From positions 782 to 43,140 of the forward strand of contig MHHS01000050.1 of NCBI GenBank assembly GCA_001817115.1: a stretch of 42,359 nt of DNA, given 5' to 3'. This stretch comes from Candidatus Andersenbacteria bacterium RIFCSPHIGHO2_12_FULL_45_11b. GTDB taxonomy: Bacteria; Patescibacteriota; Andersenbacteria; UBA10190. The position numbers and the translations under genes were made by a program. Below the pieces are notes generated by a model, which ran no database searches, was not told the origin of the DNA, and was given only the letters and a program-made list of their open reading frames with translations. Shown here one piece after another: positions 3,244 to 16,402 of this stretch. The first letter of the stretch is position 1. The number at the start of each line of letters is the position of its first letter.

Positions 3244-3334
3244 CTCCCCCTTACCAAGGGGGAGGTAGAGGGGGTCTGCGTCGTGGCGCTTAACCTGCCC
3301 CCACCCTAACCCTCCCCCCAATTGGGGGGAGGGG
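3244..3334 (+). repeat. family-A double-hairpin G/C-tract element, full copy (R1)
   Basis: CTCCCCCTT-acc-AAGGGGGAG, then GTAGAGGGGGTCTGCGTCG...CTTAACC...CCCTAACC, then CCCTCCCCCC-aatt-GGGGGGAGGG. Confidence 0.85.
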
Positions 3335-9176: not shown

Positions 9177-10106
9177 ATGTTTGATAGCCACGCGCATATG
9201 ATAGATGCAGCATTTGATGCTGATCGCGAAGCGCTGATTGCGCAGTTATTCGCATCTGGCGTTACTGGCTGGATAGAAGTTGGTACGAGCGTCGAAGAAA
9301 GTAAGCGCGCAATTGCTCTGGCACAAACAGACGGTCGAATTTTTGCTTCGGTCGGCGTGCATCCGCATGAGCTGAAAAAAATGCAGGAAGAAGATTGGGT
9401 GGAAATTAAGCGGCTGCTTGAAGTCTATGAGGTGAATTCGCCGCGCTTCGCGACCCCTCACCCTAGACCGGTCGTTTGTGCTATTGGCGAAGTTGGGTTG
9501 GATTTTTCTCGCGTTGTCATCCCCGACCTGATCGGGGATCCAAGCGTCGGCGACCCAGCAAATCGGCGGGCAGGCGTGGATTCCCGCTTTCGCGGGAATG
9601 ACACAGTGACGAACGAAATTGGTTTTCAAGGGCAGATGTTACGAAAATTTATAGAGCTAGCGCAGGAAAAAAGTTTGCCCGTTATTTTTCACGTCCGTTC
9701 TGGTGTTATCGCGATGGACGCTCATGAAGAATTAATTCGCATATTAAAAACATATTCAGATTCTGATAGGCCGAGGGGCGTTATACATACATTTAGCGGC
9801 ACGCTGGCGCAGGCGCAGCAGTATATTGCGCTTGGTATGATGATTTCTTTTTCGGGCGTTGTTACTTTTAAAAATACCGGAGAATTGCCGGAAGCGGCAA
9901 AAACAATCCCGATAGAATGTATGCTCGTAGAGACAGATTGCCCCTATTTAACGCCGATGCCGCATAGAGGAGAGCGCAACGACCCGTCTTTTTTGAAGCA
10001 TATCATCCAATATATCGCTGATTTGCGAGGCGCCTCTTTTGCGGATATCGAGCGAGTTACACAAGAAAACGCAAACAATCTTTTCTGTCAACATAGTGTA
10101 CAATAA
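9177..10106 (+). CDS. tatD: TatD family metal-dependent hydrolase carrying in-frame repeat-element insertions
   Basis: FDSHAHM, AIGEVGLD, VIFHVRS, GVIHTFSG, LVETDCPYL. Start set at MFDSHAH. An extra 29 aa (VIPDLIGD...RFRGND) is encoded by the family-B repeat. Confidence 0.9.
   Translation: MFDSHAHMIDAAFDADREALIAQLFASGVTGWIEVGTSVEESKRAIALAQTDGRIFASVGVHPHELKKMQEEDWVEIKRLLEVYEVNSPRFATPHPRPVVCAIGEVGLDFSRVVIPDLIGDPSVGDPANRRAGVDSRFRGNDTVTNEIGFQGQMLRKFIELAQEKSLPVIFHVRSGVIAMDAHEELIRILKTYSDSDRPRGVIHTFSGTLAQAQQYIALGMMISFSGVVTFKNTGELPEAAKTIPIECMLVETDCPYLTPMPHRGERNDPSFLKHIIQYIADLRGASFADIERVTQENANNLFCQHSVQ
9444..9469 (+). repeat. possible family-A middle-segment fragment inside tatD
   Basis: GCGCTTCGCGACCCCTCACCCTAGACC resembles R1 GCGCTTAACCTGCCCCCACCCTAACC and R7 ACGCTTCTAACCAGCCCTCACCCC. 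It encodes PRFATPHPRP. Confidence 0.35.
9516..9602. repeat. family-B hairpin-pair element (GTCAT...ATGAC), 87 bp, in frame inside tatD (B1)
   Basis: GTC ATCCCCGA-cctg-ATCGGGGAT ... GTGG ATTCCCGC-tttc-GCGGGAAT GAC. Starts on a codon boundary and spans exactly 29 codons. Confidence 0.85.
10099..10104 (+). promoter_or_regulatory. -10-like TACAAT (preceded by TG), 6 nt upstream of the giant-protein ATG
   Basis: Motif and spacing read directly. Overlaps the tatD stop codon. Confidence 0.45.
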
Positions 10107-10110
10107 AGCA

Positions 10111-13100
10111 ATGCTAGGGCTTCGTGGCAATACGTTGTTTGTGTGTATTTTTTTATGCCTTATGGGAAGCAGATTCAAGCAATTTGCATATCTTTCCGTC
10201 GTAATTCTTGTTGCAGGCTTTTTCTTATTTCCAAATTCAGCAGATGCTGCTATTGCAAGAGTCCAACAAACATCAGGTTCTGCAACTACTAATCCTGTAT
10301 CAGCCACTTGGACTAGTAGCACTACTTCGGGAAATTTGTTAGTTGCTCAGATTGTTACAGCTAGTGATCCGGGCCTTATCACTCCTCCTGCTGGCGGATG
10401 GACTTTAATAGATACCATTATTAATGCAAATTATACTAAGCTTTACTATATACAAAATGCGGCGGCTCAAAGCGGTTCGCAATCTTGGGCTATCACAGGA
10501 GATACTTCGGCTACGCAATTAATTATGGCAGAGTATAGTGGAGTAGCTACTTCTGGTGCCTTAGATCAGTATTCTACTGTTACTGGTGTTGATACTACTC
10601 TAACTACACCTACCGTTAATACTACTACTGCTGATCAACTACTAATAGGTGTTTTTGGAAACGGATCTACCTCTGAAAGTTTTTCAAGCCCAACTAATAG
10701 TTTTAGTATTTATGCGCAAGGAACAGTTGGATTAGCCCCAGCTTCAAGCGGTGCTTTTGTGGATAGGATTGTTTCATCGACAGGCAGTTATTCAGCCGGG
10801 GTAACAGGGACTGGAGGTAGTGCATGGGGATCAATAATTGCTACATTTAAGGCAGCGTCATCTACCTCCTCCATCTCCGGCACCGTCTACACCGATGAGG
10901 GTACTACCAACATCGGTGCCAACAAAACAGTAGCCGTTTCCATCAACGGAGCAGCTGCAGCCGGCACCGACGATACTGATTCCAGCGGAGCATATAGTAT
11001 CACAGGTCTCACGGTGTCTGCCGGAGATGTTCTCACTCTCTATATAGATGGTGAAACCGAGAAAGGAGTCACCGTAACTAAAGGATCAGGAAGCAACCTC
11101 ACCGGAATTAATATTTTCCAAAACTATTTAATTACTAGATGCGATAACTCATGTTCTCTTACTAACACTAATCTGGATACAGCAGACGGTAATGGAGATG
11201 CTGATATTTCTTCTATATATTCAGTCAGCGGAGGAGCCACAACCACGGCTTCGGGAAAATCTCTATACATTCCAGCTTCTAACACCTATGCTCCAGGAGG
11301 TAATGTCACTGTGGCAGGTACTTTCACTAATGCAGGAACTTATACTACAGGAACTGAAACGCTGAGCCTTACCGGAACCAGTTCCTACAATTTCACGCCA
11401 GGTTCTACTATATACAATGTGACCATCAATGGCTCTGGAGGTACGTATACATTGCAGGGAAATTTGACCACTTCTAACAACTTAACAATCACAGCAGGAA
11501 CGTTGGATGTTAGCGGCAGCAACTACAGCATATCCGCAGGAGGCAATTGGTCTAATGCGGGGACGTTTACGAAGCGTTCGGGGACAGTCACGCTTACGAG
11601 CACATCTGGCAGTGCAACACTTACTTCGGGAGGAAGCAGCTTTTATAATCTCACGCAGAACGGATCTGGCGGAACGTACACCCTGCAAGATGCATTAACG
11701 GTTTCTAACAATCTTACGATTACTGCAGGAACGCTAGATGCAGGAGCAAGTAATTATGCAATTACTATTGGAGGTGGGCTTACTAATTCAGGTACTCTGA
11801 CTACTCAATCGAACACGGTAACCCTTAATGGCACTAATCAAAGCATTACCGGTTCCAGCACGTTCTACAATCTTACAAAAACGGTATCGTCTGCTGCAAC
11901 ATTAACGATTAATGCGAGCTCTACACAAACGGTGACTGGAACTCTTACGTTAGGGGGCGCTCTTGGGCAGCTGCTCACTCTTGTATCGTCTAGTCCGGCA
12001 ACGCAATGGATTATTAATCCATCGGGAACTCGAACTGTTTCTTATCTGGATGTGCGAGATTCTAACAACGCAAATGCAACGGCAATTGATTGTACGACGG
12101 GGTGTACGAATTCCGGCAACAACACGAATTGGAATTTCGGTTCATCTGATACCACGGCGCCTACTGTTTCTAGTTTGAGCCCATCCAACACTGCAACTGG
12201 GGTATCTCCTTCTTCTGATTTTGTTATTACATTCAGCGAAAGCGTGAGTGCGGTATCTGGAAAAAATATTACGATCAAGAAATTTTCTGATGACTCGACA
12301 TTAGAAACAATTGCGGCGGATAACTCTAAAGTTACTATTAGCGAGAACGTAGTTACTATCAAACCTTCTCCTGACGGGGGATTCCAAGACCTCACCTTGT
12401 ACTATATCGTTATCGACAGCGGTGCCTTTATTGACGCAGCAAGTAATGCGTATGCGGGGATTGGTTCTAGCGAACATTGGAGTTTTACAATAGCAGATAC
12501 AACTACTCCAACTGTTTTAAATGTCAGGCCTCTTAATAATGCAACTGGAGTGGCGAGAACGGCAAATCTAGTTATTACATTCAATGAGACTGTACAGCGT
12601 GTTTCCGGGAAAAAAATCAACATCAAAAGAGTTTCTGATAATAAGTTGTTCGAAGCTATTACCGTACAAAGCGGAAAGGTAACGGGAAGCGGAACATCTA
12701 TAATCGTGGTTAACCCTGCCAAGACGTTCGATGCTGGCACGGGTTATTACGTATTAATTGATTCGGGCGCATTTACTGACACTTCAGGCAATGCATATGC
12801 CGGTGTATCCAGTTCATTGGTATGGAGTTTTACTACGCAAGGAACTGCTTCTAATCCAACCCCCACGCCTACTCCCGTCATTGTTATTTTGCCGCTTCCT
12901 ACTCCTACACCCGACATTACTCCAGTACCGACACCAGATCCGACTAATCCAGACATATCGCCGACTCCAGTTATTACTCCTTGCTTCAGCTGGGATATCC
13001 TTTGCACAACCCCAACACCGGAAGCGAGTCCTGAACCTAGCATAGTACCTGAACCTAGTGTTATTGAAACTCCGAGCGAGCCTCCCATCGAATTGCCGCC

Positions 13101-14316
13101 GATTATAGTTATTATTATAGATATAGTGAAAGATGTTGTTGATACCGTTGTAGAAGTTGTTGAAAAAGTAGTTGCAATTGTGAAGAAAGCAATTGTTATT
13201 GTAAAAGAAATTGTGAAATCGCCTGCCACGGGTATTCCAAAGGCGAGAGAAGCGCTGAAGCCAGTCGTTCATTCGCCAGCAGTAAAAGCAACGGCTGCGG
13301 CAGCTACGGCTATTGCAGTTGTTGGCGTTGCTGCATCTAGTGCTAGCGTTGTGGCATCCAGTGCCAGTATCGCAAGCACCACAACAAGCATGTCCTCGTT
13401 GCTAAATGAAGTTTCTCAGCTATTGTCGAAAATGTGGGAAGGGGTATTGAGTTTTCTTGGGTTCCGTCGAAAAAAACGTCCATGGGGCAGAGTGGTTGAT
13501 GCGGAGAGCGGAGATCCTGTTGCAGGGGTTTATATTCAAGTATACGACCATCAGTCAAACCAACTGAAGGGCACTATGGTTTCAAACGATAGAGGATCTT
13601 TCTCCTCACTTGTTCCGCCTGGGTCGTATGAATTTCGAGCACAGAAACAAGGTTGGGCGCTTGCGCCTCAAGCGCCCTATCTTCGCCTTGTGGCAGGAGA
13701 GCGCGTATATGACGGCAAACCTGTCACGGTGACAGAAGGGAAGCTTTTGCCGCTTGTACTGGCAATGCGCTTAGTTGAGTCGGTGCCACTGACCACGCAT
13801 GTTATTTGGCGAAGAACGTTGCAATCAGTGCTGTTATTTATTATGCGGCTCTCCTGGCTTGCGCTCATTATCGGTACTGTTTTAAGTTCTGCTGCGCTGT
13901 TTGTATCCCCAACGATTATTAATATGCTCATTGAGGCTCTGTATGTGTTGCTTATTATTTGGAAGATAATACTCCATTTCATTATCGGGTCTGCAGTGGG
14001 ATATGTGCGGGATGCTGCAACAAACAAGCCGATTGATTTGGCATTGATACGCGTGCACGATGCTTTAACTGGGCGACTGGTTGAAACTCGTACGACAGGG
14101 CGTGATGGGAAATTCTTGTTATTACCACCAGCTGGTGTGTATACGTTAACGGTTGTTCATGCGGGGTATGAGCCATACAGAGAAAGTCATGTGGTGGTAG
14201 ACAGGAAGAAAGAGTCTCTGGCGTTGTCGTTTTCGCTAAAGGCATCTGCTGCAGAAGATGACAGCCGGGTATCGGGAAAATTTACCCTTCCTGGTCGAAA
14301 AAACAAAACAAAGTAA
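10111..14316 (+). CDS. giant adhesin-like membrane protein: beta-helix-like repeats, two Ig-like domains, P/T linker, TM segments, two CarboxypepD_reg-like domains
   Basis: Signal/TM segment VVILVAGFFLFPNSADA. Three repeats of about 60 aa (NNLTITAGTLD...NY.I..GG). Two paralogous domains of about 110 aa (DTT.PTV...ATGV...ITF.E.V...SGK.I.IK). PTPTP linker and hydrophobic segments. Two G.V.D...G.P...A.I.V.D modules. Confidence 0.85.
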   Translation: MLGLRGNTLFVCIFLCLMGSRFKQFAYLSVVILVAGFFLFPNSADAAIARVQQTSGSATTNPVSATWTSSTTSGNLLVAQIVTASDPGLITPPAGGWTLIDTIINANYTKLYYIQNAAAQSGSQSWAITGDTSATQLIMAEYSGVATSGALDQYSTVTGVDTTLTTPTVNTTTADQLLIGVFGNGSTSESFSSPTNSFSIYAQGTVGLAPASSGAFVDRIVSSTGSYSAGVTGTGGSAWGSIIATFKAASSTSSISGTVYTDEGTTNIGANKTVAVSINGAAAAGTDDTDSSGAYSITGLTVSAGDVLTLYIDGETEKGVTVTKGSGSNLTGINIFQNYLITRCDNSCSLTNTNLDTADGNGDADISSIYSVSGGATTTASGKSLYIPASNTYAPGGNVTVAGTFTNAGTYTTGTETLSLTGTSSYNFTPGSTIYNVTINGSGGTYTLQGNLTTSNNLTITAGTLDVSGSNYSISAGGNWSNAGTFTKRSGTVTLTSTSGSATLTSGGSSFYNLTQNGSGGTYTLQDALTVSNNLTITAGTLDAGASNYAITIGGGLTNSGTLTTQSNTVTLNGTNQSITGSSTFYNLTKTVSSAATLTINASSTQTVTGTLTLGGALGQLLTLVSSSPATQWIINPSGTRTVSYLDVRDSNNANATAIDCTTGCTNSGNNTNWNFGSSDTTAPTVSSLSPSNTATGVSPSSDFVITFSESVSAVSGKNITIKKFSDDSTLETIAADNSKVTISENVVTIKPSPDGGFQDLTLYYIVIDSGAFIDAASNAYAGIGSSEHWSFTIADTTTPTVLNVRPLNNATGVARTANLVITFNETVQRVSGKKINIKRVSDNKLFEAITVQSGKVTGSGTSIIVVNPAKTFDAGTGYYVLIDSGAFTDTSGNAYAGVSSSLVWSFTTQGTASNPTPTPTPVIVILPLPTPTPDITPVPTPDPTNPDISPTPVITPCFSWDILCTTPTPEASPEPSIVPEPSVIETPSEPPIELPPIIVIIIDIVKDVVDTVVEVVEKVVAIVKKAIVIVKEIVKSPATGIPKAREALKPVVHSPAVKATAAAATAIAVVGVAASSASVVASSASIASTTTSMSSLLNEVSQLLSKMWEGVLSFLGFRRKKRPWGRVVDAESGDPVAGVYIQVYDHQSNQLKGTMVSNDRGSFSSLVPPGSYEFRAQKQGWALAPQAPYLRLVAGERVYDGKPVTVTEGKLLPLVLAMRLVESVPLTTHVIWRRTLQSVLLFIMRLSWLALIIGTVLSSAALFVSPTIINMLIEALYVLLIIWKIILHFIIGSAVGYVRDAATNKPIDLALIRVHDALTGRLVETRTTGRDGKFLLLPPAGVYTLTVVHAGYEPYRESHVVVDRKKESLALSFSLKASAAEDDSRVSGKFTLPGRKNKTK

Positions 14317-14371
14317 TGAAGAATTAAGTTGAAAAAATAAAGCTTAATAGAGATTATTTATTTGGATATAT

Positions 14372-14399
14372 TTGACAAGCGCTCAAGTAAGACTACAAT
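14372..14399 (+). promoter_or_regulatory. near-consensus sigma-70 promoter (TTGACA, 16 nt spacer, TACAAT)
   Basis: TTGACA at 14372-14377 and TACAAT at 14394-14399. The upstream tract is AT-rich. Confidence 0.6.
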
Positions 14400-14405
14400 T
14401 TGTCA

Positions 14406-14710
14406 TAGTTCGTTGACAGATTGGGAGAGTACATTGGGGTTTACGGAACAGGGTGTTCCGTTGGCAGTTTGTTGGTTTCAGATCAAGGACTTGATCATGA
14501 GGTTGCAGGAGATGGAGAGACAGTTGCGGGCAACACGAACGACGGATTTTCAGGAACCCGAGACGAAGCAGCAGAGGTTTGAAAAAACTATTCTGTTGGT
14601 CCCCAGATTCCCAACGGAAGACAGGAGGGTGAAGCGTATTCCCTAATTTCCAGTCATTTCGGCGACAGTAGCCGTGGTAGATACTTTTATCTGCCGCGGC
14701 TTATTTTTTT
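14406..14710 (+). ncRNA. candidate about 305-nt structured RNA of unknown class (alternatively an mRNA for a 49-aa peptide, 14497-14646)
   Basis: Bounded by the promoter above and a strong terminator. Internal hairpins: ACGGAAC/GTTCCGT, GATCAAG/CTTGATC, GTTGG/CCAAC. The 94-aa track ORF starts at TTG upstream of the -35 box. Confidence 0.4.
14670..14710 (+). terminator. Rho-independent terminator
   Basis: 13-bp stem 14670-14682/14689-14701 with two U-G wobbles that pair only in + strand RNA. Followed by TATTTTTTT. Confidence 0.8.
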
Positions 14711-14721
14711 GGTAAGTATTT

Positions 14722-14773
14722 CCCTCTCCCAAATATGGGAGAGGGAGGGGGGGGAACTTGCGTATTCGCTTAA
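14722..14773 (+). repeat. family-A element, left half only (R3)
   Basis: CCCTCTCCC-aaatat-GGGAGAGGG followed by AGGGGGGGGAACTTGCGTATTCGCTTAA. Confidence 0.7.
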
Positions 14774-14799
14774 ATAATAGCTATTACGAACCAGGCGAT

Positions 14800-14865
14800 G
14801 AGGGCTTTGAAAAAGAGGTAAAATGCAGAGTCGAGGCTGCTCGGAAGGTTATATACGGGGGATGA
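14800..14865 (+). repeat. 66-bp imperfect direct repeat, copy 1 (left flank of the protease islet)
   Basis: gagggctttgaaaaagaggtaaaatgcagagtcgaggctgctcggaaggt... The first 50 nt match copy 2 at 43/50 positions in my hand alignment. Confidence 0.75.
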
Positions 14866-14896: not shown

Positions 14897-15115
14897 ATGA
14901 GTGTGAATCAAACAGTGAAAGAAATCCCCATTGTGCCACTCGAGTTTGCGGGGCAGTGGATTGCATGGAATGAGGATCATAGCAAGATTATTGCAAGTGC
15001 AAAGCATCTTCCTGAGGCGCACCAGAAAGCCCTTAAGACAGGAGAGAAACATTTTTGGATGAGCAAGGTTCCATCCAGTAAGGACTTTTTTGGAGGAGCT
15101 GCTATTCATTCATGA
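14897..15115 (+). CDS. small DUF5678-like protein (module 1 partner)
   Basis: 72 aa. FAGQWIAWNEDHSKIIASAKHLPEAHQKALKTG matches my memory of DUF5678-type proteins. TATACT lies 6 nt upstream of the ATG. ATGA overlap with the next ORF. Confidence 0.6.
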   Translation: MSVNQTVKEIPIVPLEFAGQWIAWNEDHSKIIASAKHLPEAHQKALKTGEKHFWMSKVPSSKDFFGGAAIHS

Positions 15116-15579
15116 AGTTTTCCTACTCCCCTTTTTCTCGGGAGCATATTGTTGGTGCCCGAGAGGGTATTATTTATAAGCCAACCTTGCCCATTATAGT
15201 GCATGGTCCGACAGGTACATTTGGCCTGGATGCTTTGGCTGATACTGGCTCTGACCAGATACTGTTTCCGAGATATGTTGCTTCTCTAGTTGGTGTATCT
15301 CTCGGGCAGCAAAATAGCGCTCATGTGAGTGGCGTTGGAGAAAAAAGGATGCCGATATTTTTCGTAGATGGTATTGAGCTTTCGTTACAATCGGATGGTC
15401 AGGCGTATCGCTGGCCAGCTCGTGTATGGTTTAGTGATTCTGACGAAATGCCAGCTTTGCTTGGGCACATAGACTTTTTGCAATTTTTTACATCAACATT
15501 TGACGGAAAAACTCACGAACTTGCACTTGAACCTAATAAGGAGTTTCCCGGTAAATTAACTGATCTCTGGAAACGATAA
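15112..15579 (+). CDS. retropepsin-like (clan AA) aspartic protease
   Basis: 155 aa with catalytic-type ALADTGSDQILFP and a downstream LLGHIDFL motif. Start overlaps the upstream stop (ATGA). Confidence 0.7.
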   Translation: MKFSYSPFSREHIVGAREGIIYKPTLPIIVHGPTGTFGLDALADTGSDQILFPRYVASLVGVSLGQQNSAHVSGVGEKRMPIFFVDGIELSLQSDGQAYRWPARVWFSDSDEMPALLGHIDFLQFFTSTFDGKTHELALEPNKEFPGKLTDLWKR

Positions 15580-15600
15580 TTCAAACCCGAAGGGTTTGAA
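15580..15600 (+). terminator. hairpin immediately after the protease stop codon (terminator-like, no clear T-run)
   Basis: TTCAAACCC / GGGTTTGAA 9-bp stem with a 3-nt loop. Confidence 0.4.
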
Positions 15601-15708
15601 TATGCTTTATAATGGGGAGATACGGCGTATGGAGGCAATGTCAAAGAGTATCCTTGGAATGATATATACGGAAAGTAATACATAGTGGCATTATTCTTTT
15701 TGTGACGG

Positions 15709-15714
15709 TATTAT
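15709..15714 (+). promoter_or_regulatory. -10-like TATTAT, 6 nt upstream of ATG 15721
   Basis: Motif and spacing read directly. No SD. Confidence 0.4.
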
Positions 15715-15720
15715 AAAGAT

Positions 15721-15972
15721 ATGAGTGTGGGTATTGAAGAAATTGCAAAAAAGGGGGAACGTATTTACGTTAAAAAAGAAAAAACGTTGTCTGCGGCTCA
15801 CAAAGGGGAATATATGGCAATTCAAGTGGATACTGGAGACTATTTTTTAGGAGAAACTGGGGGTATCGCAATTGAAAAAGCAAAAAAGAGATATCCAGAA
15901 GATGTTTTCTATCTTGTAAAAATAGGATTTTCTGCAACACAGACGCTCGCAAGTATGTCGCGCACACGATGA
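15721..15972 (+). CDS. small DUF5678-like protein (module 2 partner)
   Basis: 83 aa. HKGEYMAIQVDTGDYFLGETGGIAIEKAKKRYPEDVFYLVKIG parallels the module-1 partner. TATTAT lies 6 nt upstream of the ATG. Confidence 0.6.
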   Translation: MSVGIEEIAKKGERIYVKKEKTLSAAHKGEYMAIQVDTGDYFLGETGGIAIEKAKKRYPEDVFYLVKIGFSATQTLASMSRTR

Positions 15973-16235
15973 TTGGAAAAGTTATTGATGATCGACCATA
16001 TGGTAAAGTTCTTATTGGGTTAATAACGACGCACACGGAGAAAATTCGATTTGGGGATGGGTCGTTGCAATATATTCCAGCATCTTTTGTGTATTGTGAT
16101 ATGGATGGCATGATTGCCTCGTTACAAGTTTTAATTTTAGATGGAGAGCCATATGCGGGTATCGGTTTTTTGAAAAATCTTTCGTTTGGTATGGATTTTA
16201 ATCCATCGAAAAAGACGCTTTTTCTGAAGCGATAA
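15969..16235 (+). CDS. degenerate retropepsin-like protein lacking the D-T/S-G motif
   Basis: 88 aa with an ATGA overlap to the upstream ORF. RFGDGSLQYIP sits where DTGS would be. The C-terminal GIGFLKNLSFGMDF..KKTLFL parallels LLGHIDFLQFFTSTFDGKTHELAL of the 155-aa protein. Confidence 0.5.
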   Translation: MIGKVIDDRPYGKVLIGLITTHTEKIRFGDGSLQYIPASFVYCDMDGMIASLQVLILDGEPYAGIGFLKNLSFGMDFNPSKKTLFLKR

Positions 16236-16249
16236 GTTGCTTCCTTGCC

Positions 16250-16315
16250 GAAGGCTTTGAAAAAGAAGTAAAGCGCAGAATCGATGCTGCGCGGAAGGTA
16301 CTGCGGGGAGAATGA
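16250..16315 (+). repeat. 66-bp imperfect direct repeat, copy 2 (right flank of the protease islet)
   Basis: gaaggctttgaaaaagaagtaaagcgcagaatcgatgctgcgcggaaggt... Both copies end in ...cgggg..atga. Confidence 0.75.
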
Positions 16316-16369
16316 GAGGGGGTTTGCGTCGCGACTAACCTCCCCTAGCCCCTCCTTCGTAAGGAGGGG
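16314..16369 (+). repeat. family-A element, right part only (R4)
   Basis: GAGAGGGGGTTTGCGTCGCGACTAACCTCCCCTAG followed by CCCCTCC-ttcgtaa-GGAGGGG, 10 nt upstream of ATG 16379. Confidence 0.75.
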
Positions 16370-16402
16370 AACTTCTACATGACAACTGACGAGCTATGCC
16401 TA

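Follow-up and report, generated by a model that had tools for sequence, protein, structure and literature searches.

Two coupled gene pairs between tatD and leuS

The 42,359-nucleotide (nt) stretch of "Candidatus Andersenbacteria" bacterium RIFCSPHIGHO2_12_FULL_45_11b analyzed here (contig MHHS01000050.1, positions 782 to 43,140; referred to below as the window) carries, between tatD and leuS, a block of four short genes designated A to D (Table 1). The block consists of two different cassettes, AB and CD, built on one architecture, in which a small protein of DUF5678 type and a cytoplasmic aspartic protease of retropepsin type are translationally coupled; ATGA stop/start overlaps join the genes at 15112-15115 (A/B) and 15969-15972 (C/D). 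An original prediction, made from the DNA letters alone, had described four plus-strand open reading frames (ORFs) with these two overlaps, and its coordinates were reproduced. The two bicistrons are 141 nt apart, and a hairpin resembling the stem-loop between them was found 3′ of the damaged D gene of a relative (L066). The anatomy of the block, that is, the identities of the cassettes, the intact AB pair, a deletion within D, the flanking remnants of mgsA and the variable island that holds all of these, is assigned here with high confidence.

Table 1. Features of the four-gene block and its flanks (window coordinates; aa, amino acids; REP, repetitive extragenic palindromic)
Feature	Position	Strand	Description
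REP-like GC-rich palindrome	14722-14754		Adjoins mgsA remnant 1
mgsA/rarA 3′ remnant 1	14773-14865	+	Last 30 codons and stop; tblastn aa 398-427, 87% identity, E = 1.5e-11
Gene A	14897-15115	+	72 aa from ATG, a start shared by homologues; likely DUF5678-family small protein, upstream partner of B
Gene B	15112-15579	+	155 aa; retropepsin-like (clan AA) aspartic protease, soluble; apparently intact
Stem-loop	15579-15601		Perfect 10-bp stem, ATTCAAACCC GAA GGGTTTGAAT; starts on the final base of the B stop codon, between the AB and CD bicistrons
Gene C	15721-15972	+	83 aa; probable DUF5678-like fold; upstream partner of D
Gene D	15969-16235	+	88 aa; remnant of a 119-121-aa DTGF-type retropepsin
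mgsA/rarA 3′ remnant 2	16244-16315	+	Last 20-22 codons and stop; tblastn aa 407-426, 85% identity, E = 4e-5
REP-like GC-rich palindrome	16339-16369		Adjoins mgsA remnant 2; 30/31 identical to the copy at 3837-3867

Gene B encodes a predicted retropepsin-fold protease

Protein B alone had no match in Pfam or NCBIfam scans, and thus none above a curated clan AA threshold, and a word-indexed search returned six close relatives only. At E < 1e-3, an exhaustive profile search placed it in a family of 799 representative clusters, of which 181 passed E < 1e-10; the proteins are, with few exceptions, about 150 aa in length. The catalytic loop of B reads A-L-A-D44-T45-G46-S47-D48 and its second motif L117-G118-H119; in an 80-sequence alignment of the family, D44 and G46 were invariant and Y5, P24, L42, D48, P53, W101, G118 and G121 were conserved in at least 90% of sequences. 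Many of the aligned homologues matched PF13650 (Asp_protease_2; 66 of 80 at E < 0.01, best 1.3e-8), PF13975 (61 of 80) or RVP (34 of 80), with weak matches to TIGR02281 as well, and the family profile, when run against the PDB, found the HIV, FIV and HTLV proteases together with Ddi1. An AlphaFold2 (AF2) model of B, with a mean predicted local distance difference test (pLDDT) score of 93.8, had as its best Foldseek matches the HIV-2, SIV and FIV proteases, Rickettsia APRc and Ddi1 (probability 1.00; target-normalised template modelling [TM] scores of 0.6-0.7). Family profile, invariant residues and modelled structure together identify B as a predicted retropepsin-fold aspartic protease whose catalytic loop is intact. 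The assignment first made from a D-T/S-G signature and LLGHIDFL is thereby upheld, with ALADTGSD at residues 41-48 and LLGHIDFL at residues 116-123. Neither a signal peptide nor a membrane segment was visible in the B sequence.

Three relatives of B (P0043, P0063 and P0103) are single chains with two B-like domains, each of which has its own DTG motif. They represent a pepsin-like bilobed arrangement that arose inside the bacterial B family. Because these chains hold two such domains and two motifs, single-domain proteins such as B are implied to act as dimers. Some other matches were set aside: a phmmer search of B against the PDB gave ubiquitin matches only, which were judged spurious, and the polyubiquitin matches of the B profile, like the WD40 matches of the A profile, were sums of weak repeat matches that contained no significant stretch.

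Gene A and its conserved pairing with B

Protein A matched Pfam DUF5678 (PF18929) somewhat below the gathering score (E = 1e-3, 19.3 bits versus 23.2), with residues 16-60 aligned to model positions 5-48, and 24 of the 34 partner proteins encoded upstream of B homologues matched the same model (best E = 2.2e-11); A is likely a member of this family, as had been predicted. Across the A family G19 and A23 were invariant, and I31 and the tail residue G67 were conserved in at least 90% of sequences. The C-terminal tail lies outside the Pfam domain and is conserved nonetheless (KVP....FFGG in A, VP....F-x-G-G in the family, followed by 0-10 variable residues), its glycine as strongly as the core.

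The pairing of the two genes was surveyed at 48 genomic loci encoding B relatives, retrieved by a scan with a 14-sequence alignment, and at further loci from close relatives. At 45 of 52 loci, the B homologue was immediately preceded by a short ORF bearing the motif Y-x-G-[KQ]-[WY]-[IV]-A-W; the remaining seven comprised one locus short of upstream sequence, two partial protease matches and four distant B-like proteins. Among loci with enough upstream sequence, no intact close homologue of B lacking a partner was found. The stop codon of the partner and the start codon of the protease overlapped by 4 nt in 29 of 35 homologous pairs that were checked, so the overlap in the window is not a local coincidence. 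The distance matrices of A and B correlate (Mantel r = 0.63, reached by 0 of 5,000 permutations), and the two genes have therefore been inherited as a unit, with shared host phylogeny contributing to the correlation. Hosts of B-type pairs were bacteria of the candidate phyla radiation (CPR), in the form of metagenome-assembled genomes (MAGs) labelled Saccharibacteria and Andersenbacteria, and mainly Planctomycetota, with single cases in Actinomycetes, Alcaligenaceae and Alphaproteobacteria. Given the frequency of both the upstream DUF5678-type gene and the 4-nt overlap, the protease-plus-partner module is a conserved gene pair from CPR bacteria to Planctomycetota, and the conserved adjacency that the original prediction had supposed for such genes does hold across phyla. 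The prediction had placed such pairs in archaea and cyanobacteria; the B-type pairs found here came from the phyla just listed.

Three MAGs each had two B-family loci; both were intact in two of them (L010 with L011, L026 with L042), and in the third (L041 with L048) the second locus held a gutted 47-aa remnant. At another locus (L020, 2471-3004), one partner gene with two DUF5678 domains in tandem lies upstream of a single protease gene, an arrangement that was likewise counted towards dimeric action.

CD is a distinct cassette with a gutted protease gene

Protein C scored against DUF5678 at E = 0.095 (residues 27-64, model positions 6-42), and among C and its eight homologues, eight of the nine sequences matched the model at E ≤ 1 (best 4.4e-4). 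Its AF2 model (pLDDT 81.8) comprises a helix, a beta-hairpin, a helix, a strand and a tail predicted to be disordered. The model had no structural neighbour in the PDB; it superposed on Pandoravirus "DUF5678 domain-containing" proteins in BFVD (TM 0.56-0.58, root mean square deviation of ~2 Å, 59-60 columns, E = 0.2-0.26). Homologue matches, model and superposition favour the DUF5678-like fold proposed for C. The Gly-Gly tail of the A family is absent from the C family.

The two cassettes had been described as a local duplication, and this view did not hold up. Pairwise comparison gave no significant similarity between A and C (BLASTP E = 1.6; profile-profile hhalign E = 0.24) or between B and D. 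The core that A and C were said to share does lie in the same register as their Pfam DUF5678 matches, but the similarity itself is not significant, and their common MSV start is a coincidence, the orthologues beginning with MNT, MD or MQ. The proteases fall into different subfamilies, that of B with ~150 aa and DTG[SA]D...LGHxGFL and that of D with ~120 aa, a DTGF motif and proximity to TIGR03698, and they could be linked at the profile level only (hhalign E = 3.7e-5). Since neither A and C nor B and D are significantly similar pairwise, AB and CD are, as judged from their sequences, two different cassettes of the same architecture, with members that are not recent paralogues.

The segment aligned between the B and D profiles is exactly the one absent from D of the window. 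That protein had no match in Pfam or NCBIfam scans, TIGR03698 included, and a protein search yielded one homologue (P0008, 119 aa, reading MIGKVIDDRPYGKILIRWGSTILDLVVLIDTGFDGDIRISPDIARQLGLITTHTEKIRF...). Alignment with the DNA of an intact homologue revealed a clean 93-nt in-frame deletion, with its junction between 16016 and 16017, which removed 31 residues (RWGS..LIDTGFDGDIRISPDIA..L) spanning a strand, the DTG loop and the helix after it. The intact homologues (P0008, L056, L060 and L064) carry [LV]IDTGFDGD, the DTGF motif is also present in L066, and the intact proteins align to nearly the whole of TIGR03698 (clan_AA_DTGF) at E = 1e-7 to 1e-5, with 25.4-32.3 bits versus a cutoff of 57.35. 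The original prediction had RFGDGSLQYIP standing in D where the D-T/S-G motif should be; in intact homologues, LIDTGFDGD is present and IRFGDGSLQ follows 27 residues downstream of it. The prediction was right that D is non-catalytic, the D-T-G-F motif having been deleted, and wrong about the manner: D is the remnant of an in-frame deletion rather than a pseudo-enzyme with a substituted motif, and relatives show other, independent lesions or loss of D. The 88-aa D recurs on an independent contig (L062), so the gap is unlikely to be an assembly artefact. Because the deletion took the catalytic loop, D is non-catalytic and probably a non-functional remnant.

In the strain represented by L062, which is 99.9% identical, gene C (2443-2646 of that contig) has an additional 48-nt in-frame deletion, equivalent to window positions 15846-15893, that leaves 67 aa and lacks LGETGGIAIEKAKKRY. 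This shows decay of the CD cassette at the population level.

Selection and decay

Ratios of nonsynonymous to synonymous substitution (dN/dS) were 0.04-0.2 for all four genes, with dS often saturated (A, 0.04-0.16; B, 0.07-0.2). AB is intact and under purifying selection, and the low ratio of D is mostly a legacy of the time before its deletion. In the CD cassette, the protease was disabled independently three times with C kept: by the 93-nt deletion in the window, by a deletion plus frameshift in L066, and completely in L061. The B family offers a similar case in L048, where the protease was cut in frame to its N- and C-terminal ends and the partner is intact. That D decays only where AB is present was ruled out by L066, which has a broken D and no AB.

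A variable, recombination-prone island

In relatives, the backbone of the region runs pyrophosphatase, tatD, a small unit (described below), mgsA, one or more cassettes, and leuS. The arrangements found were mgsA-AB followed by a partial downstream gene that was not identified (probably leuS; L003); AB without mgsA (L002); mgsA-CD with D intact and AB absent (L060); mgsA-AB-C-leuS with D wholly absent (L061); tatD, ~800 nt, C, D with an internal deletion and frameshift, and leuS, again lacking AB (L066); and C, intact D and leuS, with D and leuS spaced by 18 nt (L001). Cassette content at the tatD-leuS site among close relatives thus takes the forms AB only, CD only, AB plus C, C plus broken D, and AB plus C plus deleted D. 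Between the window and L061, amino acid identity is 92-93% for A and B but 67% for C; therefore, cassettes have been exchanged. A distant CD pair was found at L064, and in Andersenbacteria intact CD also occurs at a different site, beside a TraG/TrwB-like gene. There (L056-L059, 1215-3110), the pair lies just downstream of the gene for a TraG/TrwB-like coupling protein and a DUF8128 gene, which suggests that this copy may sit in a conjugative or mobile setting.

Intact mgsA, the gene of a recombination-associated ATPase present at the same site in relatives, is absent from the window. What is left of it, identified by tblastn with MgsA of relatives, is two 3′ remnants that form the left and right copies of a direct repeat flanking the four genes (86% DNA identity over 50 nt). 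Relatives in which leuS comes right after D (or after C when D is absent) do not have the second copy. Campbell-type integration could have produced the flanking repeats but is unproven, since no second copy is present in the relatives that have AB or CD. Both remnants adjoin a REP-like palindrome (Table 1), and these palindromes may have been involved in the rearrangements. Similar GC-rich palindromes (CCTCCCCTA[A/G]CCCCTCCTTCGTAAGGAGGGG), which resemble REP elements, are dispersed in intergenic regions of the window, with further sites at 3246, 3298, 3791, 25972, 28247 and 28312.

Between tatD and the small unit, a gene at 10039-14316 encodes a 1,425-aa repeat-rich secreted or surface protein with no counterpart there in L002, L003, L060 and L061; this makes it the variable island's second accessory insertion. 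The four genes had been taken for the only accessory block among housekeeping genes, whereas the whole of ~10.0-16.4 kb proved variable, with this surface protein gene inserted and mgsA reduced to its two remnants. Both cassettes thus sit in a recombination-prone tatD-leuS island, flanked by mgsA remnants and REP-like palindromes.

A proposed toxin-antitoxin-like mechanism and its alternatives

We propose tentatively that each cassette is a toxin-antitoxin-like pair serving addiction or abortive defence. The protease would dimerise, each subunit contributing one Asp, and would be harmful when free; the co-translated small protein would bind and block it, most likely by means of a conserved flexible C-terminal tail that fills the substrate cleft or prevents dimerisation, and the protease would be set free once the small protein is lost or turned over. 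This reading fits best because it accommodates the gene coupling, the patchy multi-copy distribution, the exchange of cassettes in a variable island and the asymmetric decay. Many antitoxins bind their toxins through conserved flexible tails, and the conserved A tail outside the Pfam domain, together with the disordered C tail, was counted as support for an antitoxin-like binding segment. A role for the protease as harmful effector, kept in check by a co-translated DUF5678 protein, is nonetheless a possibility that we rate below an even chance. The broader idea that DUF5678-plus-retropepsin pairs form an unrecognised toxin-antitoxin or abortive-defence class, with a cytoplasmic retropepsin as toxin and widespread in CPR bacteria and Planctomycetota, is more doubtful. 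Taken as a whole, the anatomy of the block combined with a toxin-antitoxin-like mechanism is the best explanation available and comes close to an even chance.

Several results weigh against this proposal. Searches of the four proteins against the PADLOC defence and toxin-antitoxin models gave chance-level matches only (E = 0.036-0.055). No matches were found in PHROGs for the scanned proteins, on plasmids for B, D or the A-type partner, in phages for B, or in IMG/VR for the B and D families, and a metagenome scan for D returned one already known locus only. Classical type II antitoxins usually carry a DNA-binding domain, and neither A nor C had a helix-turn-helix, ribbon-helix-helix, AbrB or Phd match or any other recognisable domain of this kind. 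AB has been kept beside leuS in genomes that are 63-93% identical, at the low dN/dS noted above, which would fit an ordinary host function too, and its neighbours in Andersenbacteria look like housekeeping genes, as judged by N-terminal sequences without a family-library scan. The distant B-like proteases at L046, L052, L053 and L055 (24-26% identity) stand without a partner. The frameshifted B genes with intact partners at L049 and L051 may be assembly errors, and the asymmetry of decay is partly an ascertainment effect, the B-family search having been seeded on the protease motif.

Part of this would also suit a second, unlikely explanation, by which AB is a dedicated housekeeping or regulatory cytoplasmic protease with host substrates, A is its stoichiometric activator or adaptor, and CD is a redundant pair in the course of being lost. 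The place held by AB beside leuS under strong purifying selection across relatives, the housekeeping-looking neighbours and the want of any tie to plasmids, phages or defence models all favour it, redundancy would explain the decay of D, and characterised bacterial A2 peptidases do involve other protein factors, as RimB does RimA/RimK (PMC11957791). A core function would, however, be unusual with so patchy a distribution, with two B-family loci in each of three MAGs and with cassettes exchanged at one site; AB is missing from that very site in the close relatives L060 and L066; and decayed cassettes keep the cofactor and lose the enzyme, when the cofactor alone should be useless.

Alternatively, the protease and the small protein might be enzyme and substrate, with B trimming the tail of A (...F-x-G-G plus a few residues) and so maturing a small effector or signalling protein. 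An analogy exists in the processing proteases that expose a C-terminal Gly-Gly in ubiquitin-like proteins, and the position of the VP...F.GG motif outside the DUF5678 domain, with only 0-10 variable residues after it, the strict gene pairing and the co-divergence of both proteins count in favour of such an arrangement; the disordered tail of C, too, would be accessible. We nevertheless regard it as improbable: a Gly-Gly tail is lacking in the C family, which means that the motif is no general trait of this architecture, the pairs come without genes for conjugation or export, and C outlives the loss of D, which argues that C is useful without being processed.

Finally, it is very improbable that D is a functional pseudo-enzyme, a folded 88-aa protein that sequesters C or forms inactive heterodimers with B, for although its deletion is in frame, its ATGA coupling to C is kept and its remaining 87 codons are 82% identical to P0008 with no stop codon and a dN/dS of 0.06 (mostly pre-deletion history), a retropepsin fold is unlikely to survive once a core strand, the DTG-bearing psi-loop and the helix after it are gone, B and D differ too much to make heterodimers likely, and the further C deletion in the 99.9%-identical strain, like the frameshifted or absent D of relatives, makes up the pattern of a decaying cassette.

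Relation to known systems

To our knowledge, prokaryotic retropepsin-like proteases are rare and poorly understood, the few that have been characterised being membrane-bound, secreted or part of the Rim system. The retroviral enzymes (MEROPS A2; HIV-1/HIV-2, SIV and FIV) resemble B in having one lobe, a hydrophobic-hydrophobic-D-T/S-G-A/S loop and a later hydrophobic-hydrophobic-Gly, but B is a free-standing 155-aa bacterial protein outside any polyprotein, only ~14-20% identical to them, with extra N-terminal (MKFxY hairpin) and C-terminal strands and a dedicated upstream partner gene. Three bacterial retropepsin-like proteins or groups offer further comparisons: (i) Rickettsia APRc (PMC4140852; PDB 5c9f), a single-lobe clan AA protease and structural match of B that is, unlike B, membrane-embedded; (ii) Pseudomonas RimB (PMC11957791), cytoplasmic and active with partner proteins, as proposed for B, yet of a different family and encoded in the rimABK operon; and (iii) the Rlo enzymes of P. 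aeruginosa (PMC12239564), also single-lobe clan AA but secreted. None of these is paired with a DUF5678 gene. Small archaeal retropepsins (~100 aa) have been reported close to type III CRISPR loci (PMC3973734), whereas the window has no CRISPR genes near D.

As for curated families, intact D homologues share with TIGR03698 the DTGF motif and a length of ~120 aa and score far below its cutoff, and B homologues match TIGR02281 (clan_AA_DTGA) weakly and below its cutoff; both are distant relatives of these families, not members. PF18929 is matched by the A family, and the C model superposes on viral proteins annotated with this domain, with A and C themselves below the gathering threshold. The likeness to type II toxin-antitoxin systems lies in small overlapping genes with the smaller one first, a patchy multi-copy distribution, the exchange of cassettes and an effector that decays as its partner persists; the difference is that no retropepsin occurs among the known toxins of the searched libraries and that the partner has no DNA-binding fold. 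The literature search returned one mention of DUF5678, which was irrelevant, with no described function, and nothing that linked retropepsin-like proteins with antitoxins or described retropepsin toxins.

A soluble retropepsin family of ~800 clusters that is nearly always accompanied by a DUF5678 partner gives this domain its first functional context. Should the pair prove to be a protease toxin and its inhibitor, it would add a new type of effector to toxin-antitoxin and defence biology and offer a naturally occurring protein that inhibits a retropepsin; with a lethal effector, it would be the first prokaryotic system to use an HIV-protease-like enzyme in that role. Should it be a regulated processing protease instead, it would belong to the small number of accessory functions that streamlined CPR genomes have kept. 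In addition, the D lesions across relatives form a series that clearly illustrates cassette decay.

Other features of the interval

The small stand-alone unit at 14372-14701 combines a promoter close to consensus (TTGACA-16-TACAAT, 11/12) with a strong terminator (14-bp stem and T-run). Four relatives have it in synteny between tatD and mgsA, with poor conservation of its interior, and a 94-aa ORF with a TTG start lies at 14362-14646; as a candidate for a known RNA, the unit had no Rfam match. At the other end of the block, the longest leuS ORF starts at 16379 (MTTDELCLYTAYMADNPYNH...), and the starts of orthologues correspond to 16415 (MADxPYNH). The first 12 codons of the longest ORF are probably not translated; they derive from the inserted segment of mgsA remnant and REP-like palindrome.

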